From positions 1 through 25,143 of the IMG/VR virus record IMGVR_UViG_3300024345_000775: a DNA stretch of 25,143 nt. One strand, written 5' to 3'. Numbering within the stretch: the stretch's first letter is position 1; each line of letters opens with the position of its first letter. The notes under the pieces were generated by a model. That model saw only the letters and a list, made by a program, of their open reading frames with translations. It did no database searches and was not told where the DNA came from. Shown here piece by piece: positions 3-23,759 of this stretch. This stretch comes from a virus. Its lineage: Duplodnaviria > Heunggongvirae > Uroviricota > Caudoviricetes. The position numbers and the translations under genes were made by a program.

Positions 3-3000
3 TTGAAGGAAGTGAGAGAGTGGGTGAGAGCGTGGGATGCAAGAGGAGCAGGACTTCTTGAACTTGGGTATGCTTTAGGTGAAGTTCCTGTTAGTACTGA
101 AGGGAAAGCTGAAGGTCATTATAACTTTAGACAGTTCTTTAAAAACTTAGATATTAGACATTCTTTTGAACCTGTAGCTAGTGACTTTACTATTATCTCT
201 AACTATCAGAAACATGCTGCTGAAGCAGTAATTCCTAAGATTTACAGAACTCAACTGAAATTAGGAAATACATCTTTAGCAGATATTACACCAGCTTACT
301 TTGAAAGAGTTAACAATTATTATAGAAGTGAGTTTAATGATGTAGAAGTAATAGTTAGAACAGATAGTGGTAAGTTTAGCATATCAAAAATTAAACCTCA
401 AAATGCTACTCCCGTTAATGTTCTTGTAAGAGAAGGATACAGGATAGACAAACAAGGTAATAGAATGTACAGGTGGCCTGAGGATGCCACTCTTTACATT
501 GGTGACAATTATGGTGAAGAATGTATAGTTCTTAACACACATTCAGATACAATTGCTGTAAAGGAAATCAACTAGATTTTATCAAGTTTAGATAACATAG
601 TTTCAGTACAACCTTTAGGTACACACTTCCATTCTTTAAAAGAATTAAGAACTCTTGTAAAGAATAGTGTTTATCATAATCAAATAAAGACATATGATAC
701 TGAGGCAATTGATGTTACCTATGCAAGTTCACAGCAGATGATTGGTGATGTTAAGAAAGCACTTGCTAATATCTATAATGATAGTGAGCAACAATACTCT
801 AGAGACTTGTCTCAAGTGTTATACAATTCTTTCTTAAAATCCTTAAATATCATCTCAACCAGAATACCTACTCAGGACTTACAATCATTCATGGCAATGA
901 AAGTTGCTGGATTTACTGAGAGTGAAGTAAATGATGTGTTTGTTACTAGGTGGCAATTATGGTTGCAAGGGTCAGATATGGACATTGATAAAAGTTACAT
1001 GTTAGGTGTTTCACTTAACAAGCAAGGTATTTATCAGCATTGGTCTCCATTAGCAGATTACACTAGTCAAGCAGCTATGGAGATTTCTGATAGATTACCA
1101 TTGCCAACTAACATTGAATTGGTTTGGGGAGATGACAGTGATGAAGGTACTAATAAAGTACAAGTAACTACTGACAATCCTGATGCACAACTTGTACAAC
1201 TAATTCAACAATACATATCAACAGATGACAATGTAATTGGTTTACAGTTACTGTTAGACATACTAAACTATGTAAATACTAATAAATCTTTTAACATTAC
1301 AAAAGACTTACTTGATAATAGACTTGTTAGAAACTTGATAATTAAACTTAACAAGCATAACAGACATATCATCACAGCTGAAGAATCTAAGAACTTAGTA
1401 GCAAGAAACATTAACTCTGTTTCTACTAATGCTAAAAACTTCTCTCTTTCTTACTCCTCTATTGATGGAGCAATGAAATTGTTTAAAGATGCTCTTGACA
1501 AGGTATTTATAGAACAACAACAAATGAATTTGTTTGATGGAATTTCTATTCATGCTTTACAAGAGATTAACTCAGTTGGTAAACAAACAGTAGGTGTAAT
1601 GGCAAATGGTATTAAAGTATTCTTTGCTTTAACACAATACTATAACCAATTCTATAGAAATAATCCAAGTGCACAAGATATTCTTGACAGCTATAAGTGG
1701 TTTAACAATAAACTTACATTACTTGTAAATGATGAGGAAGGTAAAGAAAAAAGAATTACTCTTCCAACAAGTTTTGTAGCAGATGTTAGAATCATTGAAG
1801 AAAGAATTAAAGAACTTTCCAAAGCATGGGCAGACTTATTAGGTAATCCTGAAAGACAGTTGTATTATAACAATAATACTGCTTCCTTATAGCAAAGTTC
1901 CTTGATTTCACTTGCAACAGATAATGCTAAAGAATTAGCACTTGCAAAAATGAATGCAGGTATTAAGCTTGCTTCAATACATGTATATTTGACTTTACTT
2001 GGAGTTGACCCAGAGACAATTGTTCAATTTACAACTTCTAAACCATTTAACAAATTTAATGAGATGATTCAATCTAATAGATTTGTTGATGGTGAAGAAA
2101 AAAGAATTGATGAACAATTATTTGAAGAATTCTTATCCTGGGGTAACAACAATGGATACTATGATGACTGTGTACAAATAATGAGACTTTATAAGTTTGC
2201 TGATGAAATTACTGAATTAGCAAGAATACTTGGAGTTAACTAGGGTGTTAAAGTTGATTTATTTAAAGCTAATGGTCTTTTAACAGGTTTCCAAAGTGTA
2301 TTATCTAACAGAATAAAAGATTTACATGAAACTCTCTTGGCAATTAGAGCAAGTCAAATGCCAGGACTATCCAAGAGTGGATGGTTCAATTTGAAAAAGA
2401 ACTTGTAGGTTGTAACAGATGATGAATTACCATTGTTAAATGTTAATACAGCAGTACAAGCTCTTACATTGATACATGATAACAGAAGAGGTAAAGTAGT
2501 AGAATATTACTCAGATAAGATTAGTAAGGCAAATGATATTATTAAAAAATATCAGATTGATATTACTAAACCTATCAGTATGACAAGATATTTTGCTGAC
2601 CCTGAATACAGAAAAGCAGTAACTGACATTTATGATGCGGTTAAATCTACTTACAATGTATATGACATTATCAATGAGTCTAGTAACTTCTATGCTATGC
2701 TTGAAGCATATTCTCAATCTATGGAAGAGATGAAAGCTCTTTCTGCAAAAGCTAGATTTATTTTAGATTCTGGTATCAATGGTTTCTTTGATGGTAGTTT
2801 AATTAACTTTAAGAGTAATGGAGTTAAGAGGATTACATACAACAGTAGAACTGCACAAAGAGCAATTAAATTCTTTGATGACTATGTTGTTGCTGATTTT
2901 CTTAAAGACCAAAACTTACAGATTACTTTACCATTTAGAAATAAAACTTTAAAGAAATTATACAAGATAGACTTCAAGAGCAACGCTTCTATAGAAGACT

Positions 3001-3740
3001 TTATTGAATTGATGAACTATATTGTAGTTCCAGCTCTTAAACAACTTAGTAGAAAAGCAATTAAAGAGAATCCTACTACACAAGATGAAATTGATTTGAA
3101 CTATGCTATTCAAGCTGTTACAAACAATGAATTTTTAGATGGAATAAGACTCTTTGAAGATGCTAATACTGGTGTAACTAAATATGTAGCTAACTTCAAT
3201 ATAGACCAAATCAACTCAGATTATGATACTTTGAAGTATCAGAACTTTGTTGGTGGATTTAATAGATTGATGAATATTAAGTTAGGAACAATTCTCCAAA
3301 GGACATCTACTGTAATGAACAAAGGTTTGGATATGACTTTTGGAGATTTAATGTTTATTTACAATCAAATCCTTAATCAAGATTCTATAGGGCAAAGGTC
3401 TCTTACAAAGATATTTGATAAGTACATTACTGATGCAACTCCTGAATCTTTATCACAGAGGTTAATCAATCATTATCTCTTGTATGATAGAGGAGAAAGA
3501 ACAATAGAGCCTACTCTTGAAAATAAAGAGAAGTTCATTTATTTCTTACTTAGAGGAAGAATAAGACCAAAATCCTTAATTAGATTTGAATCTGGTCATT
3601 CAATTATGGATGGTTTTAAAGGGTTACTTGGACTTAGAACTTTTGAAGAAGCTGAAGTAGATAACAAAGCTCTACAAAATGCTGCTAAAGTAACTAGTGC
3701 TTTAGAGAATGGAAGTTTGTCAGTTAATTATGAGTGTTAA
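3..3740 (+). CDS. Virion-packaged DNA-directed RNA polymerase, catalytic (beta-prime-like) part; 5'-partial, 1245 aa in window when read through 4 in-frame TAG codons
   Basis: Track ORFs 3-575, 738-1892, 1902-2243 and 2433-3740 share one frame. They are separated only by TAG at 573-575, 1890-1892, 2241-2243 and 2406-2408; I translated the gaps and found no other stop. The gene ends with TAA. Motifs: TRIPTQDLQS and WLQGSDMDIDK (DxDxD at 975-989; compare DFDID in phi14:2 gp66), ISLATDNAKEL and LGVN*GVK. Confidence 0.88.
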
Positions 3741-3741
3741 T

Positions 3742-4608
3742 ATGGCATGTGAATTTAAAGTAACATTAAATACAGGAAAGGGAGTGGAGGAGATTACTCT
3801 TCCCTCCCCAACTGCTATATCTGAAAATCCTAGAGAAGTAGCAGGGCAATTTTTAGAGGCTCTGAGAGCATATCCAGCTAAAGCTAATAAACTTGTCCAG
3901 TTGATAGATGAAAGTGTCTTAAATCAAAGAAAAACACCTTTAAAAGAGGTTGATTTATATTCTGCACTTAATATCATTGCAGATAACATGAGAACTCTAG
4001 GAGTAGATGTGCAGTTAGTAGAAGACTATCAGATGAAATCTTTAGGATTTCCAGAAAGCACAGAAGCTGGTGTAGCAGAAGGTAAAATCTATATTAACAC
4101 AAATGCTGCTACAACAACAGCTCCATTACATGAATTTACACATCTTGTATTTGGTGTAATGAAAGCTGACAGTTATTCTGACTTTATGAGAGCTATGGAA
4201 ATTGTTTCTAAAGTTCCACAGTTCCAAGAAATGTTAAGAAGTCTTCCTACTGAATATCTACACTTTATGGATTTAGATAGGAAAGAAGAAGCTTTTACTA
4301 GACTTATTGAAGCAATTATTGATAATAAGGTTAGTTATGAAGTAATTCCAGAATATGATGAATTGAATGCTATCATGGTAAAACATCTTGAGAAAACATT
4401 TGGACTTGAAGGAATTGTTGATTTTATTTCATACTTACAAGGTCCTTTATCTCAGATTGGTAATGATAGTAGTCTTTTGAAACCTAAAAAGATTGCAAAA
4501 ACAGGTTATTCTGATTATCAGTATAAAGTAGTTCAATCTGCAAAAGTTATGAACTATATTGAATCTTTAATTAAAGAAGGTATAATTACAGAAGGAGAAT
4601 GTCTATGA
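3742..4608 (+). CDS. Zincin-like (HExxH) metallopeptidase-domain protein of the virion RNAP module, 288 aa
   Basis: GKIYINTNAATTTAPLHEFTHLVFG, with HEFTH at 4129-4143 preceded by a typical beta-strand. ATG 3742 lies 1 nt after the RNAP stop, so it is preferred over the track start at 3709. The TGA overlaps the next ATG. Confidence 0.75.
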   Translation: MACEFKVTLNTGKGVEEITLPSPTAISENPREVAGQFLEALRAYPAKANKLVQLIDESVLNQRKTPLKEVDLYSALNIIADNMRTLGVDVQLVEDYQMKSLGFPESTEAGVAEGKIYINTNAATTTAPLHEFTHLVFGVMKADSYSDFMRAMEIVSKVPQFQEMLRSLPTEYLHFMDLDRKEEAFTRLIEAIIDNKVSYEVIPEYDELNAIMVKHLEKTFGLEGIVDFISYLQGPLSQIGNDSSLLKPKKIAKTGYSDYQYKVVQSAKVMNYIESLIKEGIITEGECL

Positions 4609-7600
4609 GTAAATGCTATACATTTAATAAAGTAACTCTTACTCAAGAGGAACTTGTACAAAACATACTTAGTAAGCTAGAACAGGAAGGAATGGAAGAC
4701 ATTAAGTCTACAATCTTGAGTGTGCAATCAGACCTTACTACAAGACTTAGAAGATTAGGTTCTTTGTCAGAAAGAAAGAACTCATAGACTGTTGTAAAGA
4801 AAGACAGGTTTATTGGTGTATCTGAATACCTTGAACAAGAACATGACCTTGGACAGGTTGATGCAGCAGGCAGAGTAATTATGAAGCCTCTTGTTCCTAT
4901 TTACAATAAAGAGAACAGAATAGAGAATACTCTTAAAAACTTGTTACAACCTGAAGATACTCAGAAAGCCAATGGAGACATGCAAGCAGCTTTAGATAAT
5001 CTTCTTTTACAAATTGAAGAAGAGTCTGCTGTTAGTGAATTTGGTAGTTTATTTCATAATCTTGTAAGTATTGCATTTAAGAATACAACTGCTAATCAGA
5101 AAGGCTATGATTCATTAGCATTTGCAACAGCTCTTGCTGAAGCTAAAAGAACTATTGAAACTAGTACAGAACATGAGGTTGATGGCCAGACAGTAGCAAG
5201 TTTAGATACTATACTTACTTCAAGAGAAAGAGGTTCTAAACCAAACATTGAAGAGATAATTAGAATTATCAAAAAGAATGTAATAGCTGTCGTTGATTCT
5301 ATTCTTAACAATCCTGATTACTCTGGAGCAACTATCTTGAGTGAACATCATATTTCTACTAACAATGTAAAAGTTAATGAAGATTTCTCTGGTATTAAAG
5401 GTATTTGTGACTTAATCATTGTTAAACCTAATGGTGATATTGACATTATTGACTTCAAAGTATCTACTAGAAGTTATGATGACTGGTATTCTGCAAAGAA
5501 AATACATACTCAATATCAGTTAGGTATGTATAGAGAAATACTCGCTGCTAATGGTTTTGATGGGTATAGAATTGGTTTATATACTTTACCAATTAGTATG
5601 CCTATGGGAGCTATTAGAAGTATGAGAGTAGAAAATAGAAGAAACTTAGGTATTTCCAGTGGTTCTACTCCATCAAAGCTTGATTACTCTTATGGTGACT
5701 ACTCTCAAAACATTAGACAACTTATATATTCTCCTGTAGCAGTACAAACTATAAATACATCAGAGTTAAATAATGAAGTCGATGAAGCTCTTAGAAAGTT
5801 AATCATTCCTTTTGAAAGAAAGGAAAGAAATTACACTTTTGAAGAACTTGATAGAAGAATTACTGTACAAGTGTGGAATGGTAGAACACAATATGTTCTT
5901 GTAAATCCTTTAACAGGTAAAGTTGAAAAGAGAACTAATAGAGAAGATTTTACAAAACATAATGGTATTATTGAACAAATCATCAACAATACTAGAACTC
6001 ACTTCAATAAACAAGTTCATGATATTGTAAGACAGATTACTGATTATCAGAGTACTTCTGCTCACCCATCTACATTTGACTTCTTAGGAACAAAGAGTAA
6101 TCCTAATACCAATACATACAATGTATTACAACAAACTTTTGGAAAGTATGTAAATAAGAAGTACAAATTACTTGATATTCCAACTCTTCTTGATTTAGGT
6201 ATTATTGCTTATGAAGATACAAGAAGTGGTGTAATTGATTTTATTTGCCTTACTGACCAGAAACTTGGTGTAGAACAAGATAACAATGGTTCTCAAACAA
6301 TACTTGGAAAATTCTATAGTAATGACCAAGTAAGAAGATTAGTTGGTGTTGAAGCAATGCCTTCTACAACTGAGAACATGGAATACATCAAACTGTTAGT
6401 TACATTAAATGTTATTGCTGATAAGAATCCTAATATCTTTAAAAATAAAAAGATTGGTCTTATTAAAGTAATCAACAATTATGAAGGACAATCTGATGTT
6501 CCTGTATTAGCACAACTAAAGAGTAACTTTGATTACTTGATTAAAGCTGCTAACAATAAAGGTGAGAACATTACTAATCACTTTGCACAAGATATTGTTG
6601 TAGCTGATGATTGGCAGTTATTGTTATCTGAACTTGATACTATTCTTGCTAATGTAAAAGAAGATGAAGAAGTTCATAAGATTATGACTTCTATACCAAC
6701 TTCTAACTTAGAGAAGAATCAAAAGATAGCAAAGATTGAAGACCTCATGAAGAAACTTAGAAAAGCTTATCCTCAAGAGTTAAAACATGAGAATATAACA
6801 ACTGCTAGAACATTTACCACACCTGTATCTCAAGTTTATTTCTTACTTGCTAATGCATTGTTACATTACAGAAATGCTGATGTACAATTTAATGGTAAAG
6901 TAAGTACTTGGGGAATCAATGTAACTGATATATTCAGATTGATTGGTGGTGCAATAGTTGCTAATCAAAATTCATTTGCTGGTCCATTACAGGGACTTAT
7001 TTCAACTACTCCTTCTGCTTCTCCATCACAAAACATGGAGAACATTGCTCTTTTCTATAGAGCTGCTTATGATAAGTTAAGAGAAGAATTCTTTAAACAA
7101 GCAAATAGTGTTAACAGAATTTGTCTTGATTATCTGAGAGATAGATGGAATAAATCTCAAATGGATAGACTTGCTTGGAATGATACATATCCAATTTGGC
7201 AATCTTTAATGGTAAAAGATGGAGAGGGAGATTTAGCAGACAGCTTGCTTTTAAAGAACCCTTACTCTGAAACCAATATGGACCCAAGGGATAAGTAGTT
7301 CCTTAAAGAGATTCTTTGGGAAATTAACAAATGGAGAATTAAAGGTCTTGACCTCAAATATCAAACAATGGCTTACAAAGGTAATGAAACTGAGATTGAT
7401 AATCTTGAACAAGTTAGAGATGCTCAATCAAAGGACACTTATTTTGAATTACCTTTAAGAAGAGGTTCTGATTTTAACAGAATGAGAAACATTGGTCATA
7501 TTGGCTGGATGAATTTCTTTAACAAAGCTTGGTAGAATCTTAGAGATGACTTTGATTTAAGAGGTGTACATGCAGATGTATCTGCTGAAATAGATAGACA

Positions 7601-9311
7601 ACTTGGAGAAGACTCTATTCAAATGTATAATGCTTATGACATTACAGGTAGAGCAAGACAAAGTTGGATTGAGAAAGAAGGTAAACATGACTTTGAAATC
7701 AATCTTAATTTTCTTGCTGCTGATATGGCATATCAAGCAATTAGAAAAAGATACTTTGATGAAGTCTTGTTACATGTAGAAGCAGTAGCAACAGTAATGC
7801 ATTATTACAGAGCTTCTGGTGGTGCAACATTCTCTGAAGAACTTGATGCTATTGACAAGCAGATAAACATCTCAATTAAAGACCAGACTATCTTACCAAA
7901 AGAAGTTCAAGGTGCAGCAAAGGTAATGAGTGTTGCTAAGAAACTTAACAGTTACTTGGTATTGTCACTTAGACCACTTTCATTCTTAAAGGAAATCACA
8001 TTTGGTACATTTAGTAACTGTGCTAGACTTTGGGCAATGAAAGGTACTTCTCAGGAATTTGATGCTGCTGATTTAGCAAAAGCTGCTGGATTTGTATATG
8101 GTCAATCTGGTAAGAAGTACTTAAATGCTGCTGGAGGAAATGGTGATATTGCAGACTTTTCTCTTTGTGAGCAAATCAACATTATGTATGGTATTGCTAA
8201 CCAAGATATTTCTTCTATAGTACAAAAGCAAACACTTAATAAAACAGGACTTACTAATCAATTTAGTAACTACATGTTTATTAACTCTATTGCTCCTGAC
8301 TACTATAATAGAATGATTTTGTTTATAGCAAAGATGATACATGATGGAGTACTTGATGCTCACTCATTTGATGAAAATGGAGTTCTCAAGTATGATTTTA
8401 CAAAAGATAAAAGATTTGCTACACTAAATAGAATTGGTCTTAATTCTACAAGTACTGATGCTAAATATCTTGAAGAGAAAGCTCTTTATAGAGCAATGGC
8501 TGATGAGTTTACACAGAATGGTTATCAAATGACTTCTTCTGATGGTAAGTTATTACCTCTGCCAAGAGCTTATACTAATAGACAAGCAGCATCTCTCAAG
8601 GAATTTTCTGATTCTGTTTATGGTTATTATGACCATGAAACAAAATCTCTGATTGACCACATGGCTATTGGTCTTATCTGGAAACAGTTTATGGCCTTCT
8701 GGACTGCAAAGTTTAGTTTGTGGTTTAAAGGTAAACCAAGAGTAGCTGGTCAATCAACCTCACAAGGTCAGTTTGTTCCATTAGTAATTGATGGAAAGAC
8801 TCAATACAGAAAGATTACAGAACTTGCTAACGGTGAACTGCAAGTTACTTTAGTAGAAGATAATGAAGGTGGTACTCTTGAGCCACAATATGTATGGCAA
8901 GGAGACTATATAGAAGGTATTTTTGCTTCTATCATGTCAACTATAAGAGACCTCTATCACTTGAACTTTTCTGAGATAATGAATAATAAACAAAGACTTG
9001 CTAACCTTAAATTAGGTTTACATGATATTCTTATTGGTTTGTTATTATATTATATTCTTAGACTTATCTTCTCTGGAGGAACTAATAAGATGTCAGACAT
9101 GAACCCATTTGAAAGAACTCTTGTCAGAGCACTTGATGATGTTGGTCCTCATGGTTTGACAGGATTGAGCTGGGAGCCTGGGTTCTATACAACTCTTGTT
9201 AATCTACAAAATGATTTATTTGCAGCATTTGATGATGACAAAGAAATTGATTTACAAGATTGGATGGATAAAAGAATAGGTGCTGCAAAAGACTGGAGCT
9301 GGGGAGATTAA
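4605..9311 (+). CDS. Large virion/ejected protein of the RNAP module with an N-terminal PD-(D/E)XK nuclease domain; 1568 aa when read through 3 in-frame TAG codons
   Basis: Track ORFs 4599-4787, 4881-7298 and 7623-9311 share one frame. They are separated only by TAG at 4785-4787, 7296-7298 and 7533-7535, and the gaps are otherwise open. ATG 4605 overlaps the upstream TGA (ATGA). Nuclease motifs: FGSLFH, SE, KGICDLIIVKPNGDIDIIDFK, QYQLGMY (~5400-5540). Ends with TAA. Confidence 0.82.
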
Positions 9312-16457: not shown

Positions 16458-16900
16458 AAACTTTTTATAATAGTTATTGCCTGTTGTAATGTTGAACTGT
16501 CATATATCTGAAAATACAAGCAATCTATCTTATTAGCTTCCAAATATCCTCTAAAAAGCTTTCTTTTAATCAGAAACACATCTGTTTCAAATCCTTTGAC
16601 TTCAATAATAATAAGCTTTCCTTTGTAAAAGAAAGTTATATCAGGAGTATAAGTTATAGGTAAGACTTTCTTATCTTGTAATTTAAGTACTCCTAATTTC
16701 TTATCTCTATCAAAGAATTTAACAGAAGGTTTAAATCCATTCCAAATGATGAATTTAGTTTGTTCATACTCAGGATTAAATCCCCCCTCTTGGAGAGCTT
16801 TAAACACTCTTACCTCAAGGAGGGATTTAAATTGAATTCCTGAATACATTTTAGCAACAGCATTTTTGACTTTCTTATTAACCTTATGTCTAGTGGGCAT
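16454..16900 (-). CDS. Small PD-(D/E)XK endonuclease (DUF1064/resolvase-like), 148 aa
   Basis: GIQFKSLLE, ITYTPDITF, IIEVKGFETDVFLIKRKLF. Confidence 0.78.
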   Translation of the reverse strand: MPTRHKVNKKVKNAVAKMYSGIQFKSLLEVRVFKALQEGGFNPEYEQTKFIIWNGFKPSVKFFDRDKKLGVLKLQDKKVLPITYTPDITFFYKGKLIIIEVKGFETDVFLIKRKLFRGYLEANKIDCLYFQIYDSSTLQQAITIIKSL

Positions 16901-17594
16901 TGTTATATTTCAAATCAAAAGCTGCTAAGAGTCTATCTCTGATAATCCTGTTGCAATTAACATTCAAATCAAACATAGAATCTCTTTTTAATACTTTAGT
17001 TGGCAATACTAAAAAGTCAGTTATGTTCTTACTAACAATTAAGTTTGGTTGAACATCATCCTCATTTTCAGTAACAATGTCATTTGATGCTAGAAAGGCA
17101 AAAACTTTTCCTGTAAGCATCTTATCAAAATCATCAGGGTTATGATAAAGTTCACTGTTTACATAAACAGTTATATCTTTACTCTGATGCTTGATAGTAT
17201 ACATTAACAGTATATTAAGGTTTGCATCAAGAATAATTCCTGGTGCAACATAATACCTTTTATCATTCAAAGTAACTGCTACTAATCTTCTATAAGGTTG
17301 ATACTTATTATTCATATAAGTAAGTAAAGAAGTTTTAGCAGCAACTTTTATAGGTACCTCATCTGAGAATGGCACATTGATAACATATTCCATTCTATCA
17401 TTATCTCTCTTGGAACCAAGCCAAGTACGATAAAGAAAGAGTGGAATTTCAACATCACCATTTGTAAGTTTCATTACTTTGAAGTACATAGAACTTTGAT
17501 GAGCTATTCTAAAGATATTATCACAATTAGTTTGATTGTCTAACTGTCCAGCATATTTGTAACATTCTGCCAGATTTCTCTCAAACTGTGTCAT
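16890..17594 (-). CDS. Hypothetical protein, 234 aa, translationally coupled to the E1/ThiF gene (ends at TAG)
   Basis: ATG overlaps the E1 TGA (ATGA). The TAG at 16890-16892 is followed by ACA-TAA. No family motif recognised. Confidence 0.75.
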   Translation of the reverse strand: MTQFERNLAECYKYAGQLDNQTNCDNIFRIAHQSSMYFKVMKLTNGDVEIPLFLYRTWLGSKRDNDRMEYVINVPFSDEVPIKVAAKTSLLTYMNNKYQPYRRLVAVTLNDKRYYVAPGIILDANLNILLMYTIKHQSKDITVYVNSELYHNPDDFDKMLTGKVFAFLASNDIVTENEDDVQPNLIVSKNITDFLVLPTKVLKRDSMFDLNVNCNRIIRDRLLAAFDLKYNNAH

Positions 17595-19024
17595 ACCCTT
17601 GTTCTTAAGAATAGTTGGTCTGCTTCATATACTGTTAAAAATGGTAAATCTCTTGGATACAAGATATTACTTTCCCCATTAAAGATAAAGTTAACAAGTA
17701 AGTTATTCATCATTGCACCAATCATAGCAGCACAATAAGAAGTTTGCTTATAAGAGCACAATACTCCATCAGCTTCATCATCTTCAAATAACCACTCAGA
17801 CTCATATCTACTCATAAGGTCATGTCTGTCTCCAGTAATACAGAATACTTGATATTGTTCTGCATTCAATCTACCATCAATAAAGAGACATCTCTCATTA
17901 GGATGACTCTCTGCATATTCTTTCCATTTATAGAAGAATACTTTTCTAGCAACCATATTATCAAAACCACAAACCATAATAGGTCCAACTTGTCTGGTTC
18001 TACCAGTATAGAAACTTTGGAAAGTCTCTATTCTATTATAGTTACAGAAAGTTTGTACTACACTTGCAAGTGCAGCTACTTTGGACATACCAACATGGTC
18101 TATGGAGAATAACTGACCACTAAGATTTGCAGATTCTACAACATCTGCATCAAATAGTTGGATACTTTCAGGGTTAGCTCTTGCTGCTAACAAAGTAAAC
18201 CAACTACCAATACCTCCACATCCAGCAACTATAATTTTAGTTCTTTGCATTGCATCAAACCAAGTTGCTCCACTGAATCTACTACCAATATCAGTAGACA
18301 CTGCATCTACTGGTATATTAGGTATTCTATTATTTTGTACTTCAACAGTTACCTGTGGACCTTGTGCAGGCTGTGCTGCTTCAGGAGCACTTTCGGGAGC
18401 AGCTTCAGCTAGTGCAGCATCATCTGTTGAACTAGCAGCAACACTAGTACCAGCATCAGTTGCAACAGTTTCTTCAATTGCTTGAGACAATTCTCCAAGA
18501 GCTTCAGCTACAGGTTCTGATGCAGCAGCTGCTTCCATAATTCCTTGCGGAATTTGAGGGTCAGCAGAAGCAGGAGCACTTGCATTTACAGTTTGTTCTT
18601 CTGCTGGAGCACTTTCTGGAATCATCTCAACAATAGGAGTAGTTCTACTAGTAAACCTTCTTCTTCTAGTAGGAGCAGTCGCAACTGCTTCTGTAGCAAT
18701 TGTAGTATCTACTGCAATAGCAGGACCAGAACCAGCAACATCTGTTATAAGTGTTTCAGCTGAAACAGCTTCTGCTACTTCTGAAGGAGTTTCTTGTACA
18801 GTATTTTGCTCATTAACAAGTCTGTTAATAGCTTCTGATATACTCTCAGGAGCAGAACCTGAATCTACAGCAGGGCCTTGTGCTAATTGTTGAATATTAG
18901 CAGCTTCAGCTACTCTTGTTGCATAAGCAGCACGAGCAGCCTCAGCTACAGCAGGTAATTCAGCTTCTGGATATAGATTTATAATTTCATCTACACTAAG
19001 TAAAGTAGCATCTATTTCTTCCAT
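17591..19024 (-). CDS. ThiF/MoeB/E1-like adenylating enzyme with a long low-complexity N-terminus, 477 aa
   Basis: From residue ~248: SRFSGATW, IIVAGCGGIGSW (GxGxxG), LFDADVVESANLSGQ, GMSKV, CGFDNMVAR, FIDGRL, and GVLCSYKQT (Cys423, 17756-17758) at the position of an E1 crossover-loop cysteine. Confidence 0.88.
   Translation of the reverse strand: MEEIDATLLSVDEIINLYPEAELPAVAEAARAAYATRVAEAANIQQLAQGPAVDSGSAPESISEAINRLVNEQNTVQETPSEVAEAVSAETLITDVAGSGPAIAVDTTIATEAVATAPTRRRRFTSRTTPIVEMIPESAPAEEQTVNASAPASADPQIPQGIMEAAAASEPVAEALGELSQAIEETVATDAGTSVAASSTDDAALAEAAPESAPEAAQPAQGPQVTVEVQNNRIPNIPVDAVSTDIGSRFSGATWFDAMQRTKIIVAGCGGIGSWFTLLAARANPESIQLFDADVVESANLSGQLFSIDHVGMSKVAALASVVQTFCNYNRIETFQSFYTGRTRQVGPIMVCGFDNMVARKVFFYKWKEYAESHPNERCLFIDGRLNAEQYQVFCITGDRHDLMSRYESEWLFEDDEADGVLCSYKQTSYCAAMIGAMMNNLLVNFIFNGESNILYPRDLPFLTVYEADQLFLRTRV
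18384..18620. repeat. Short dispersed direct repeat (PESAP-coding) in the low-complexity N-terminus of the E1 gene
   Basis: GGAGCACTTTCGGGA (18384-18398) and GGAGCACTTTCTGGA (18606-18620) match at 14 of 15 positions; a related APES motif and two AQGP motifs also recur in the protein. Confidence 0.5.
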
Positions 19025-19025
19025 A

Positions 19026-20528
19026 TTAAGCTAATCTTTCAATTTGGGAGATATAGTGTTTGATATATACATTCTTATTAGACAGTTTGTTCATCTCCTC
19101 TGCAAGTCTATCCATAAACTCATCAGAGAAGTTTTCAATTTCACCTTCCAAACCATCTAACTTATCACTTGCTACTTCATAAATATAATCAACTTGCATA
19201 TCTGCAAATCTCTTAAAATCTTCTAAAGTAGAAAATTGTCTAGAATATACATATCCTGATTGCATAGCCCAAGCTTCATAATCACTATTCAAGTTTGGAC
19301 CATCAATATCTCCAGTTAACAAATAATACATGGCTTTGTCAATCAATGCCTGTATTTCTTCTTCGATTTTCTTGTCTTTTTCTTCATGGTTCTTGGCATT
19401 CTCCTCTTTCATTTCTTGCCTGCAATGGGCCCAAGCAGAACCAGCATCTTCCCAATCAAAATTGAGTTCATCAGGTTCAGAGGGCCCAAGAGGTTCTGAA
19501 GTTACTTTAGGTTTATTTTTATTACCAAGAAGTGAACTAGCTGGTGTAATTACTTCATCAGTATCTTTATCTACCCAGCCTTTACCAGGAATGTAAACTT
19601 GACCTTTAGTTCTTGCAAAGTTTGTTGAAGCAGAAGCACCTGCATAACCACCACCTACACCAGTACCAAAAGAAGGTCTTTGTGCAGTTGGATAACTACC
19701 TGCATAAGGATAACCACTACCATAAACAGGAGTTGTTTTCTTCTTCTTTGCTTCTCTAATATCATCAAGTCTCTTCTTAGTTTCCTCAAATTTAACATCA
19801 GATACACCTCTGATGAGACTATTTACCATATCCTCAACAAAGTTATCTCTAATTTGTACTGCATTGTCAGCAGGTACTTTAGATTTGAGTACTTCCATTG
19901 TGGAAGAAAATGCTTCCTCAAGTTCTTTCTTCAGACTGACTTGAGCTTCATGCTTCTCTACTTCTAGCATGAAATATTCTACAACTGTGGATTGAGTTTT
20001 AACTGGTTCAATATCTCCCAGTTCAACTTCCTTATCATCAAAAGTTTTATATTTGAGTGTACCACTAATTGTCAAATCCTTAACAGCCTTTCTTGTAATT
20101 GCTGCTGTATATGTACCAGCATTATTTACAATAAGAGAAACAAAATGGTTTCTATCTTTACCCTCATCTAAGAGTGTGGAAGTATCTGTTCCACTAAAGA
20201 AAGTTGCCATATTGTTATGGCTATGAATGAGCCCATTATAAACATCAGGGCTAAGTAATTCAGGATGGTCACACATATAACTTACAGCATCAGGAGAGTT
20301 ATCAAACTCAGTGTAAGTTGATGTGCCAATATCCATCGGGAATATATCAACACAAGTGATAACTAAATCACTGTTTTCCATTGTTCCTGCTTTCTTGTAG
20401 AACAAGATTCCTGACCATTCTACTTCATGTACTTGCGCACAAAGGAATCTAATTTTCTCCTCTACATTTTCAGGAACTACTATCTTATATGTAGAGTCTT
20501 GCTTGACTAGAATTAACTTCTCTGCCAT
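19026..20528 (-). CDS. JAB/MPN+ (JAMM) metalloprotease-domain protein with long C-terminal extension, 500 aa
   Basis: E37 in VEWSGILFY, then H102-S-H104-x7-S112-x2-D115 (IHSHNNMATFFSGTD), an exact E-xn-HxH-x7-S-x2-D JAMM motif; followed by HFVSLIVNN. Confidence 0.9.
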   Translation of the reverse strand: MAEKLILVKQDSTYKIVVPENVEEKIRFLCAQVHEVEWSGILFYKKAGTMENSDLVITCVDIFPMDIGTSTYTEFDNSPDAVSYMCDHPELLSPDVYNGLIHSHNNMATFFSGTDTSTLLDEGKDRNHFVSLIVNNAGTYTAAITRKAVKDLTISGTLKYKTFDDKEVELGDIEPVKTQSTVVEYFMLEVEKHEAQVSLKKELEEAFSSTMEVLKSKVPADNAVQIRDNFVEDMVNSLIRGVSDVKFEETKKRLDDIREAKKKKTTPVYGSGYPYAGSYPTAQRPSFGTGVGGGYAGASASTNFARTKGQVYIPGKGWVDKDTDEVITPASSLLGNKNKPKVTSEPLGPSEPDELNFDWEDAGSAWAHCRQEMKEENAKNHEEKDKKIEEEIQALIDKAMYYLLTGDIDGPNLNSDYEAWAMQSGYVYSRQFSTLEDFKRFADMQVDYIYEVASDKLDGLEGEIENFSDEFMDRLAEEMNKLSNKNVYIKHYISQIERLA

Positions 20529-21858
20529 ATTCTATATTAAGTAAATCTATAATCAGTTGAAGGATAGGGCCAGCCCATCTAGGATGCATGATTCTAAATG
20601 CATGATTCTCTTCAACTAATGGAATGTTATCTTCAATTTGGAAAGTTAATGGTTCACCATGAAATATTCCAATTACATGACCAATTTTTGGTACATAACT
20701 TCTCCAAGCATCTCTACTTCCTTGTCTTCTATTTATTAAATGAATTGACTCATTGACCATAGCGGCTTCAACAAGAACAGTTTCTTTAATCATAGAAAGA
20801 CTATCATTAGAGATTCTACTTAAATTGTTAATATAAGTAATAAATGCTTGACTGATGTTAATTAGAAATTCATCATATGTGAATCCAGGTTTGATTTGAC
20901 CATCTAATCTTCTAAATGGTAAGTTGAAACTACTTGCATATTCTCTAATAAAAGGATGAAAATAAGTATTATAAACAGTGCTGTTCATACCTCTAAAATT
21001 CTCCTTGTTAAGAGGAATATTCATTTGTTTTACATTGTTATATCCTAACAGACTACCTTCATTAGTATTACCAGGAATTTGTGACATTCTTATGTATGGA
21101 CCTCCACTAAGAGACTCAACAGAAATATATCTTTCAAGCTCATTACAGAATAACATCCATACATCTAAATCACATACACTACTTAATCTGCTTTCAGTTC
21201 TAATAATAGGACCTGAACCAAGGCAACTTGTAGTCCAATCTCTATCAGGGTCACAAGTACTAGATGGACAATGAGAGTGCATATAACCTATTTGTAACTC
21301 ATTCTTAGTAAAAGTAGTTCTTTTTACAAGGAAGTTACCACAGAACTTTGCATCTTTGGTAAGTGGAATTTTGATATAGAAATTATTAGCTTCATGCTTT
21401 CTTCCATCTTCATTCTCAATAACAACATGTGGGAAGTGAACAATAATCACAAACATAGGATTATTGTTGAAAAATACATTAAGTTTCCTTGTAATATCAG
21501 TTTTGTCTAATGTAACAAGCTTTTCAAAATACTCATTTACTAACTTAGAACTATCCCAATTATTAAAAGTATAATAGTCATAATAACCTCTACTAAGATT
21601 AGGAATATAACTAATATGTCTAGGAGAACAATTTCTCCAAACATATTTTGCAAGTAGTTTTGCATGAGCTTCCTTTGTATTTTCTTTTACAAGTTCAAGC
21701 TCTTCAGCATCATTATATTTATGACTAAATTGCAAATCAACCCTTTGCTCTCCATAATAATCTTGAAATACTTTATATATTTTACCAATATTTTCAGTAT
21801 TCAAGGTATCAATATAAGGAGTTAAAATTTCCTTTTCTAATCGCTCTAAACCTGTCAT
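20485..21858 (-). CDS. Putative prokaryotic E2-like (ubiquitin-conjugating fold) protein, 457 aa
   Basis: GYMHSHCPSSTCDPDRDWTTSCLGSGPI: a His motif followed by a CLG cysteine (Cys212, 21223-21225), then a helix pattern (WMLFCNELERYI) like the post-catalytic helices of E2 folds. It lies between a Ubl gene and JAB/E1 genes. The fold assignment is inference. Confidence 0.5.
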   Translation of the reverse strand: MTGLERLEKEILTPYIDTLNTENIGKIYKVFQDYYGEQRVDLQFSHKYNDAEELELVKENTKEAHAKLLAKYVWRNCSPRHISYIPNLSRGYYDYYTFNNWDSSKLVNEYFEKLVTLDKTDITRKLNVFFNNNPMFVIIVHFPHVVIENEDGRKHEANNFYIKIPLTKDAKFCGNFLVKRTTFTKNELQIGYMHSHCPSSTCDPDRDWTTSCLGSGPIIRTESRLSSVCDLDVWMLFCNELERYISVESLSGGPYIRMSQIPGNTNEGSLLGYNNVKQMNIPLNKENFRGMNSTVYNTYFHPFIREYASSFNLPFRRLDGQIKPGFTYDEFLINISQAFITYINNLSRISNDSLSMIKETVLVEAAMVNESIHLINRRQGSRDAWRSYVPKIGHVIGIFHGEPLTFQIEDNIPLVEENHAFRIMHPRWAGPILQLIIDLLNIEYGREVNSSQARLYI

Positions 21859-21870
21859 ATTCTTAAGATT

Positions 21871-21913
21871 AGAAAATAAAAAGAAGGTTAGGGAGTTTTA
21901 CCTCCCTAACCTT
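21871..21913 (-). terminator. Intrinsic terminator downstream of the ubiquitin-like gene
   Basis: Perfect 12-bp stem AAGGTTAGGGAG (21884-21895) / CTCCCTAACCTT (21902-21913) with a 6-nt loop, followed on the minus strand by CTTTTTATTTTCT. Confidence 0.85.
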
Positions 21914-21923
21914 AAAAACAACA

Positions 21924-22523
21924 TTAGATGCTAGCTACAATAGCATCAATTTCAGACTTGGTATAAGAACCAATCTTCTCATCAACAGATGCTTGGCCAA
22001 TAGAACCAACAACATCATTGTACTGAGAAGTAGTCAGATAGCCGTTATGCTTCAGAGCATCAGCTAACTTCTTCAATGCTACAGCACTACTGCAAGCATT
22101 TTGTGCAGGAGCTGCGGTCTTAGCACTGAAGTGCTTTACAACTGCCTCAAGAACACTAGCACCTACATTGGTGTAGTTTCTACCATAGGTCTTTTGGATA
22201 TAATCCTTCATTGCCTGGCTTGCACCAACAGTTGCTCTAAGAGTTACATAGTCAGTACCAGACTTAATCTTCTTATTTGCTACAGTCAGCAAGAATACCA
22301 GTTCATTAGTGGTGCCTTCACCTCTAACAACATCTCTTGGTAGCAAGCTACTATCATTGAGGAGCTCAGTCTTAGTAAGACCCTCCATGAAGGTCATACC
22401 TTCATAATCAATATGAGCCTCTCTCATATCAGCCTTAAGTTGGCCAAGAGTCTCAGCTGCGGTCTCAAGAGTATATCTTCTGTTAGCTGCATTACTTACG
22501 ATAATCACATTTCTTACTTCCAT
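21924..22523 (-). CDS. Putative ubiquitin-like (beta-grasp) protein, residues 1-89 ending in KKIKSG, fused to a ~110 aa C-terminal extension; 199 aa
   Basis: The secondary-structure pattern fits a beta-grasp fold: strand (RNVIIVS), strand (RYTLET), helix (TLGQLKADMREA), strands (MTFMEG, TEL), LP turn, final strand (ELVFLLT) and a tail ending in Gly89 (22257-22259). It is adjacent to E2-, JAB- and E1-like genes. Confidence 0.6.
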   Translation of the reverse strand: MEVRNVIIVSNAANRRYTLETAAETLGQLKADMREAHIDYEGMTFMEGLTKTELLNDSSLLPRDVVRGEGTTNELVFLLTVANKKIKSGTDYVTLRATVGASQAMKDYIQKTYGRNYTNVGASVLEAVVKHFSAKTAAPAQNACSSAVALKKLADALKHNGYLTTSQYNDVVGSIGQASVDEKIGSYTKSEIDAIVASI

Positions 22524-22546
22524 AATTCTAAATGTTTAAAAAGTTT

Positions 22547-22831
22547 TTAATGAATTTGGCTTTGTATAAAGCCTTGTATAAATGTAGTAACATCATCATT
22601 ACCACATTCAATTTGTAGGTACTTCAATAGATACCATATGCACTTATGAATATCCTCTGATGAATTAAATTTATGGGTTCTTCTTAGAAGATATTTTAAT
22701 GCAGTATTAGCACAGTGCTCTTTTACACTTTCTGTGCCATTAAATGCCAGCATTACATCAATAGCCTGTAAGCCATTTTGATTGTAATGTTCAGGCTTCA
22801 CAACCATATCTTTAGTTTCATTCATCGACAT
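22547..22831 (-). CDS. DUF3310 / SaV-like small phage protein
   Basis: VVKPEHYNQNGLQAIDV...NTALKYLLRRTHK...EDIHKCIWYL matches the V.HP.HY...IE...GNA.KY..R...K...ED..KA.WYL pattern. Start is ATG 22831 or 22825. Confidence 0.8.
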   Translation of the reverse strand: MSMNETKDMVVKPEHYNQNGLQAIDVMLAFNGTESVKEHCANTALKYLLRRTHKFNSSEDIHKCIWYLLKYLQIECGNDDVTTFIQGFIQSQIH

Positions 22832-23411
22832 ATCCAAAAGCAACAAAGGTTCCTATCTTAGCATTTGATGATGGTTTATAGACACAATAAGCTTCTATTG
22901 GGTTTTCATCAGTTATCTTAACTCTAACAATAGAACAATTCTTTTTAGTCTCAGCAATATACTTCTTTGCAGCAGTCATTGCTTCAGACTTTGTATCATA
23001 TTCACCAATCACTTTGCCAACACTATTTATAGTGACAGCTTCCAATGTATTTCCATCATTGGATGTAACTACATCAAAATCATCAGTCCTTACTTGATGG
23101 ACAGTTTTCCATCTTCTATGGTCATTGTTGCGGACTTCATATACAGCATAAGGTCTAAGCCTTACATCTTTAGTATATTTATCTACCACAATATAACAAC
23201 CATATCCTACTTGACTTCTGGTTTTGAATGCTAACTGAGCCTCTGCCCAATCCAAAAAATCATCACTCCCAGGGACAGGCTTTCCAGCTCTGACCCAAGA
23301 CCTAGTAGAGTTAGCACCTTTAATAAGAGGGTCTAAGACTCTAAATGTAAGTCCTTCAAATGCATGTTCAGCAGAGTACCCTCTTCTTTGAGATACTTTA
23401 AGCTGTTTCAT
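22818..23411 (-). CDS. Hypothetical protein, 197 aa (resembles conserved crAss-like replication-module proteins)
   Basis: ATG to TGA, in operon. YDTKSEAMTAAKKY and YKPSSNAKIGTFVAFG resemble crAss-like conserved hypotheticals from memory; function unknown. Confidence 0.75.
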   Translation of the reverse strand: MKQLKVSQRRGYSAEHAFEGLTFRVLDPLIKGANSTRSWVRAGKPVPGSDDFLDWAEAQLAFKTRSQVGYGCYIVVDKYTKDVRLRPYAVYEVRNNDHRRWKTVHQVRTDDFDVVTSNDGNTLEAVTINSVGKVIGEYDTKSEAMTAAKKYIAETKKNCSIVRVKITDENPIEAYCVYKPSSNAKIGTFVAFGYVDE

Positions 23412-23417
23412 ACCAAC

Positions 23418-23759
23418 TTAGAAGGGAGCCCACTGTAAACACAGTTGTTGTATCTTTTTACAACACTCCTCTGTGTCTTTATAACCTGGATTAGGAACAT
23501 CGTCACAGCCATAAAGCAGGTCTTGACTTATGATTCCAATAGTAATAAGAAAAGCATCAAAGCCATTTGTTTCCACAAATTTCTTCTTATACACTACTTT
23601 CTCTAAGACATCAACTGCTGTAAAGTCTTTCTTAAATGATTTGTTAATCATAAAAGTAAGAAAACACACAGCTTTTAATATCTCAAGTTTATCTTCCAGT
23701 TTACCAGAAAGGAGTCTCCCTGTTGAAAAAAAGTTGTCATTTAATGTTTTTGCATCCAT
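23418..23759 (-). CDS. Hypothetical protein, 113 aa
   Basis: ATG to TAA; overlaps the primase end by 23 nt and ends 6 nt before the next ATG. Confidence 0.72.
   Translation of the reverse strand: MDAKTLNDNFFSTGRLLSGKLEDKLEILKAVCFLTFMINKSFKKDFTAVDVLEKVVYKKKFVETNGFDAFLITIGIISQDLLYGCDDVPNPGYKDTEECCKKIQQLCLQWAPF

Follow-up and report, generated by a model that had tools for sequence, protein, structure and literature searches.

A ubiquitin-like precursor fused to a conserved helical domain, with a predicted JAB cleavage junction, in crAss-like phages

Introduction

Why should a phage encode a ubiquitin-like (Ubl) protein whose candidate reactive glycine is followed by a second domain of 110 residues? 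The question is raised by a gene in IMG/VR record IMGVR_UViG_3300024345_000775, whose positions 1 to 25,143 form the window analyzed here (25,143 nt). The genome record is an 89-kb fragment with an estimated completeness of 46%, and it holds the gene in one copy. An earlier, sequence-only reading had proposed that the neighbouring JAB peptidase cuts after Gly89 of the product, giving a mature modifier of 89 residues plus a second protein.

Two bacterial systems offer precedents. In the Type I Bub system (6E.1), BubAB is a Ubl-E2 pre-protein that the JAB domain of BubCD cuts right after the conserved G229, as established by active-site mutants and Edman sequencing (PMC11601596). In one crystallised Bil system, BilA carries Ala98 after its reactive Gly97, and the JAB of that system, BilC, has been proposed to trim it (PMC10557695). 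A Ubl precursor that is fused to a second protein and released by a JAB from the same operon is therefore already known, and the questions for the phage gene are whether its glycine junction is likely to be cut and what the attached domain might be.

Results

Domain layout of the precursor

The gene and its predicted parts are as follows.

21924..22523, minus strand: complete gene of the precursor (199 aa, stop codon TAA), homologous to crAss001 gp79
22278..22523, minus strand: residues 1-82, ubiquitin-type beta-grasp core (predicted fold)
22257..22277, minus strand: residues 83-89 (N-K-K-I-K-S-G), tail with pLDDT<50; proposed JAB cleavage after G89
22119..22256, minus strand: residues 90-135, part 1 of the C-terminal domain (CTD), an indel-prone start and then three helices with an F-G-K-N-F/Y-T motif
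21927..22118, minus strand: residues 136-199, part 2 of the CTD, an Ala-rich linker that varies, two acidic helices of weak conservation and the C-terminal motif
21936-21965, minus strand: residues 187-196, conserved motif of the Y-S-D-x-E-I-D-x-M-F type, within part 2 of the CTD

Translation of the open reading frame places residue 89, the Gly of K-K-I-K-S-G, at codon 22257-22259. AlphaFold2, run on an alignment of 23 sequences, gave a model with a mean pLDDT of 78 and a pTM of 0.49, in which the N-terminal part folds as a beta-grasp (strands 4-10 and 15-21, helix 26-35, strands 43-47, 65-67, 70-72 and 75-81), the tail (83-89) has low confidence (pLDDT<50), and the CTD is made of three helices (91-100, 103-113, 122-135) and a further three (146-159, 165-175, 189-198), the two sets being joined by an Ala-rich linker of low confidence (136-143). 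Translation and model together bear out the layout described in the sequence-only reading, namely an internal Gly89, a helical segment, an Ala-rich linker and C-terminal helices. The proposed N-terminal Ubl was likewise recovered, since residues 4-81 were modelled as a ubiquitin-type beta-grasp and fold searches with the whole precursor model returned beta-grasp matches, MoaD structures among them. Family scans of the precursor against Pfam, NCBIfam and PADLOC yielded nothing meaningful (Pox_VLTF3, E 0.09, and a CARF model, E 0.004, were the only matches), and in PHROGs it belonged only to an unannotated family, phrog_15560.

Conservation of the Gly89 tail

We aligned 248 distinct sequences, comprising representatives from a HMMER scan and open reading frames from 80 IMG/VR loci. 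G89, whose conservation the earlier reading had made a test of its proposal, was present in 100% of them, S88 in 96%, I86 in 97%, and K84 and K85 in about 90%. Among these relatives, segment 83-89 was a constant seven residues, without gain or loss, and was directly followed by a stretch that varied in length from 2 to 14 residues. The position after G89 was Ala in 63% of the sequences and never Pro, Asp, Glu, Lys or Arg. Since a fixed, near-invariant sequence that is predicted to be flexible lies beside an indel-prone segment, the tail looks like an enzyme recognition site, and on these alignments the G89 junction is more than a chance feature. A sharp drop in conservation right after S-G had also been predicted; this held locally, in the variable stretch of 2-14 residues, but not overall, as conservation resumed in the CTD.

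The tag and the CTD occur as a fusion

At E <= 0.001, an exhaustive HMMER scan with the precursor returned 750 clusters defined at 50% identity. The best 150 of these 750 were all 150-337 aa in length, so none of them ends at the Gly, and nearly all began at query residue 1. A profile built from the CTD only, which admits lengths of 57-289 aa, was also run against 5.8 billion proteins; among the 120 matches listed, all 116 new proteins (116/116) carried the beta-grasp and the K-[KN]-I-x-S-G tail. The sole return of a search for shorter relatives ending at Gly was a 97-aa C-terminal fragment on a 518-bp contig. Thus, neither a stand-alone tag ending at Gly nor a stand-alone CTD was seen in the HMMER scan, the search for shorter relatives or the listed matches to the CTD profile, and, as far as sequence comparison reaches, the fusion of tag and CTD is obligate.

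A conserved cassette in crAss-like phages

On the same strand, the precursor gene is preceded by genes for a DnaG-type primase (phrog_12622, 1.9e-45) and a DUF3310 protein, and is followed by genes for a 457-aa protein (phrog_15310), a 500-aa JAB protein, a 477-aa ThiF-type E1 and a 234-aa protein. The downstream features named in the text are these.

21884..21913, minus strand: terminator-like hairpin, a 12-bp G+C-rich stem and then a U-run, between the precursor stop and the start of the E2-like gene
20485..21858, minus strand: 457-aa E2-like candidate, homolog of crAss001 gp78, with invariant H194-S-H196, C212 and C238
19026..20528, minus strand: 500-aa JAB/JAMM peptidase, the JAB being the N-terminal ~165 aa; C-terminal domain without a family match
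17591..19024, minus strand: 477-aa E1-like ThiF adenylyltransferase (Pfam ThiF, 1.1e-15)

The order primase, Ubl-fusion, 457-aa protein, JAB, E1 was kept in essentially all of the 80 IMG/VR loci with enough flanking sequence, in which the Ubl-fusion measured 197-258 aa. Linkage between the E1 and Ubl-fusion genes was seen in 68 of 82 loci; the contigs of the others were truncated. The same block was present in cultured Crassvirales (DAC15 gp047-gp051, crAss001 gp80-gp76, and cr111_1), where the public labels of its genes are 'hypothetical', 'metalloprotease domain' and 'thiamine biosynthesis protein'. By gene order and homology, the Ubl-fusion block was thus found throughout the crAss-like phages, and literature searches for the cassette in Crassvirales or crAss001 found nothing.

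Flavobacterium phage FpV4 (Fipvunavirus) has the block with a UDG gene inserted after the primase, and its gp53 aligned with the precursor over the beta-grasp, a K-Q-V-K-S-G tail and an N-Y-T motif (hhalign probability 97.4%, E 1.3e-11). FpV4 (NC_041872) is not classified in Crassvirales; its genes lie at 2844-7946 and comprise gp53 (precursor), gp52, gp51 (JAB) and gp50 (ThiF). At 289 aa, the FpV4 precursor exceeds that of the window in length; its tail region consists of low-complexity sequence, rich in Lys and Glu, with M-F-G at the end.

At the other end of the block, phmmer recognised homologs of the 234-aa gene after the E1 (16890-17594, minus strand) in only 5 of 82 loci. crAss001 (gp75), DAC15 and cr111_1 nonetheless have a gene of about this size after the E1, and the 234-aa gene may be a fifth component of the cassette that evolves rapidly. 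A second Ubl gene was not found in the cassette.

The hairpin that separates the precursor gene from the genes for its putative enzymes had a minimum free energy of -22.5 kcal/mol (z -4.2), and, by a crude search, 19 of 60 related loci have a comparable hairpin, with a T-rich tail, between the corresponding genes. Such a hairpin would fit production of the tag precursor in excess over its enzymes. The E2-like and JAB genes overlap by 44 nt (20485-20528, minus strand), and since overlaps of about 50-90 nt recur in related loci, coupled translation is suggested.

Contigs at least 95% identical to positions 19000-23500 of the window were present in RNA-seq libraries of sheep and bovine gut from four separate studies, which indicates a ruminant-gut habitat. 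These metatranscriptome contigs span the precursor gene without indels or joints, although, as contigs, they cannot show expression level, transcript ends or processing.

The neighbouring enzymes

The match of the JAB protein to Pfam Prok-JAB fell below the cut-off. It retains E23, E37, H102, S103, H104, S112 and D115, a complete JAMM set across 63 sequences, in all of which H102 and D115, the two residues that the sequence-only reading had singled out, were invariant. From about residue 250 to 500, the JAB protein has a low-complexity middle rich in Gly, Tyr and Pro and a conserved C-terminal domain without a family match, in which Y-L-x-T-G, F432, F438, W441 and L479-N486-Y488 are conserved.

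All matches of the E1 to ThiF/MoeB-type models of NCBIfam were below their cut-offs. It conserves a GxGxxG loop, a D-G-R motif, C352, C379, C395 and C423. Its residues 1-235 form an unconserved N-terminal extension rich in Ala, Glu, Pro and Thr whose length varies widely between phages, and the E1s of relatives measure 251-424 aa. Two properties of a Ubl modifier were found together at this locus: a beta-grasp fold, in the predicted structure, and a cognate E1 in the same operon, by the Pfam ThiF match.

The 457-aa protein, whose gene lies between the tag gene and the JAB gene, has a candidate E2/UEV/RWD-like core with invariant Cys residues; it had no Pfam match, no PDB sequence match and no Foldseek match in the PDB.

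A model of the JAB at the Gly89 junction

We predicted the complex of JAB residues 1-175, Zn and precursor residues 1-135, with alignments for both proteins and with controls. The ipSAE values were 0.71, 0.41 and 0.69 (median 0.69), compared to 0.01 for the best control. Among solved complexes, 58 of 80 attained this mark, as did 2 of 110 mismatched pairs; since complexes of JAB with ubiquitin have already been solved, a pass here speaks for a likeness to those complexes and stops short of binding or cleavage. The runs had at least 61% of contacts in common, with a partner pLDDT of at least 77. The modelled interface takes in precursor residues 84-95, which contact the JAB active site, with S88 touching E37, S39, H102, T114, D115 and T118 and G89 touching T114. 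Since these include JAMM residues, the model sets the proposed scissile bond at the metal site. Together with the known systems, the model indicates that the neighbouring JAB most likely cuts the precursor at the K-I-x-S-Gly junction, which would expose G89 as a free C-terminus.

The C-terminal domain

In part 1 of the CTD, Y92 was conserved in 88% of the 248 relatives, L105 in 92%, G114 in 92%, N116 in 86%, T118 in 100% and L125 in 98%; T118 is the invariant residue of the FGKNFT-type motif. The C-terminal motif of the Y-S-D-x-E-I-D-x-M-F type was kept at about 60-80% in the same set, and the linker ranged from 0 to 47 residues across relatives. In the relatives' alignment, the net charge of residues 90-129 was neutral to slightly basic (median +1), and the last two parts of the CTD were acidic (median charge -4 each).

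The sequence-only reading had allowed that the second protein might be a DNA-binding effector. This was unsupported, since the CTD had no family match and no fold match in searches with the whole model, its part 1 is weakly basic and its remainder is acidic; given this charge profile, it is unlike a classic DNA-binding domain. The F-G-K-N-F-T region was also considered as a DNA-binding motif of the HeH/SAP/HhH type and rejected, as the lone HeH match (E 0.28) lay in a different helix and the charge is not basic. Gluconate_2-dh3 was matched by 15 of 61 members in Pfam; two members that were re-scanned scored 20.8 and 14.4 bits, below the cut-off of 23.4, and the matches were therefore treated as noise. 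When a CTD profile was compared with PDB sequences, the matches were limited to designed helical repeats and calmodulin (E > 0.008), and Atlas feature searches with the CTD returned no named cluster. When the whole model was used for fold searches of PDB, VIA wide, AFDB clusters and Atlas, beta-grasp proteins filled the lists, and no row over residues 90-199 pointed to an E2.

The C-terminal motif, acidic and with a hydrophobic end, looks more like a short protein-docking motif. It may resemble SSB-type C-terminal tails.

Discussion

The cassette is probably best explained by a pro-protein, made of a Ubl modifier (residues 1-89) and a helical CTD, in which the JAB would free G89 for the E1 and the tag would go to the E2-like protein. 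The JAB/JAMM peptidase, encoded two genes downstream, would cut the peptide bond after G89 and expose a Gly carboxylate for adenylation by the ThiF-type E1; C212 of the E2-like 457-aa protein would then probably receive the tag and hand it on to targets. Each cut would release one CTD per tag, a strict 1:1 ratio. Since it is always fused and has invariant residues of its own, the CTD is more than a spacer; it may serve as a cap, holding the tag inactive before the protease is produced, as a partner protein with its own role in the replication module, or as both. What the analysis shows is the layout of the domains, how they are conserved, the linkage of the genes and a confident model of the JAB with the tail; the cut, activation, conjugation and any part played by the CTD are inferred. 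The predicted cleavage is well supported by the comparative and modelling evidence together with precedent; that it acts as an activation switch, as had also been suggested, is speculation.

The precursor could instead be a stable, uncut two-domain protein, its beta-grasp a docking domain like the Rad23- or BAG1-type UBL and its G89 a hinge, with the JAB and E1 acting elsewhere. The strong conservation of the CTD (T118 and L125 above all) and its constant fusion to the tag agree with this, as do the many AFDB matches of the whole model to eukaryotic proteins, such as the BAG and DDI1 types, in which helices follow an N-terminal UBL. However, an E1 requires a free C-terminal carboxylate and the cassette offers it no other Ubl gene; a hinge is unlikely to hold a near-invariant K-[KN]-I-x-S-G of fixed length in a segment of low confidence; and the complex model sets S88-G89 at the zinc site. 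We consider an uncut protein quite unlikely. Alternatively, the JAB may trim the precursor to an 89-aa sulfur carrier of the ThiS/MoaD type, which would bear a C-terminal thiocarboxylate for nucleotide or cofactor modification and would not tag proteins. JAB-type trimming of sulfur carriers is known from QbsD/QbsE and Mec+/CysO, the E1 is nearest in sequence to enzymes of the ThiF/MoeB/TcdA type and has a short core of about 240 aa, the cassette lies amid genes of nucleotide and DNA metabolism (beside primase and, in relatives, UDG), and MoaD structures are among the fold matches of the precursor. Such a carrier would not account for the conserved partner, with its candidate E2/UEV/RWD-like core and invariant Cys residues, encoded between the tag and the JAB; moreover, the five cassette proteins had no rhodanese, cysteine desulfurase or sulfurtransferase domain in Pfam or NCBIfam, and the tail ends in S-G, not G-G. 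This reading is just as improbable as the uncut protein.

If the precursor is cut, as the pro-protein reading holds, the CTD might still serve only to block G89 until the protease is present, as a disposable pro-peptide that has no function after its release. Known pro-forms of bacterial Ubls carry short extensions that are removed (BilA Ala98), the central CTD differs widely between relatives in both length and composition, as its linker illustrates, and neither family scans nor fold searches with the whole model returned a match to the domain. Yet a blocker would not need ~110 residues in every relative, and both the invariant Thr of F-G-K-N-F-T and the acidic C-terminal motif are kept as far as FpV4; a mere blocker is a doubtful but arguable account of the CTD. 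At the other extreme, the CTD may be a working protein, supplied 1:1 with the tag and freed upon appearance of the JAB, possibly an adaptor or mimic that engages the replisome or host SSB-client proteins, so that cleavage would time its activity. The precursor gene adjoins the primase gene, and the CTD ends in the acidic motif likened above to SSB-type tails. We hold this specific role to be unlikely, but, if true, the working CTD would be the viral counterpart of the eukaryotic ubiquitin-ribosomal protein fusions.

In eukaryotes, UBA52, RPS27A and polyubiquitin are precursors from which the modifier is cleaved after its terminal Gly, mostly by cysteine-protease DUBs. The phage precursor is like UBA52 and RPS27A in that a modifier is translated N-terminal to what would be a functional protein, with equal release after the terminal Gly, but the partners there are ribosomal proteins that have no sequence relation to the CTD. 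There is a likeness to Type I Bub, where a Ubl is also fused to a second protein, with a conserved Gly at the junction and a JAB/JAMM peptidase from the same operon (whose cutting is a prediction in the phage). In Bub, the partner is an E2 (BubB, with a catalytic Ser), whereas the phage CTD is predicted to be all-helical and has no family match. The Bub JAB is fused to the E1, and the DUF6527 serine protease BubE is present, whereas the E2-like protein, JAB and E1 of the phage come from separate genes and DUF6527 had no Pfam match among nine neighbouring proteins. Bub belongs to bacterial mobile or defence islands; the owner of the present cassette is a phage. Bil shares with the cassette the separate genes for Ubl, E2, JAB and E1 and the presence of sequence beyond the reactive Gly, but its extension is a single residue, compared to a conserved 110-aa domain in the phage. 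The Bil E1 has tandem adenylation domains and a Cys domain, unlike the single short ThiF domain of the phage E1 core, and Bil is a host defence whereas the phage cassette lies within a replication module. PRTRC systems, too, bring together a small Ubl, a ThiF-type E1 and a JAB-like protein, and are carried by mobile DNA. The comparison with PRTRC in the sequence-only reading does not extend to membership, as PRTRC_ThiF scored 26.3 bits against a cut-off of 144.75 and PRTRC_A 12.5 against 101.8, so the cassette is not a PRTRC member; no NCBIfam model, that of the PRTRC Ubl included, matched the precursor at E <= 0.1. What is different here, as judged from the sequences and models, is the partner, predicted to be helical and not E2-like, the separate enzyme genes and the phage owner.

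To our knowledge, studies of ubiquitin-like tagging in bacteria have until now treated it as a host defence (Bil, Bub, CBASS). In animal guts, crAss-like phages rank among the most abundant viruses, and the cassette belongs to their conserved replication module. An obligate fusion of tag and partner owned by a phage raises the questions of which targets the phage would tag, why the two are synthesized as one protein and what role the partner plays. Since crAss001 (gp79, gp78, gp77 and gp76) and DAC15 are in culture, the cassette is directly testable.
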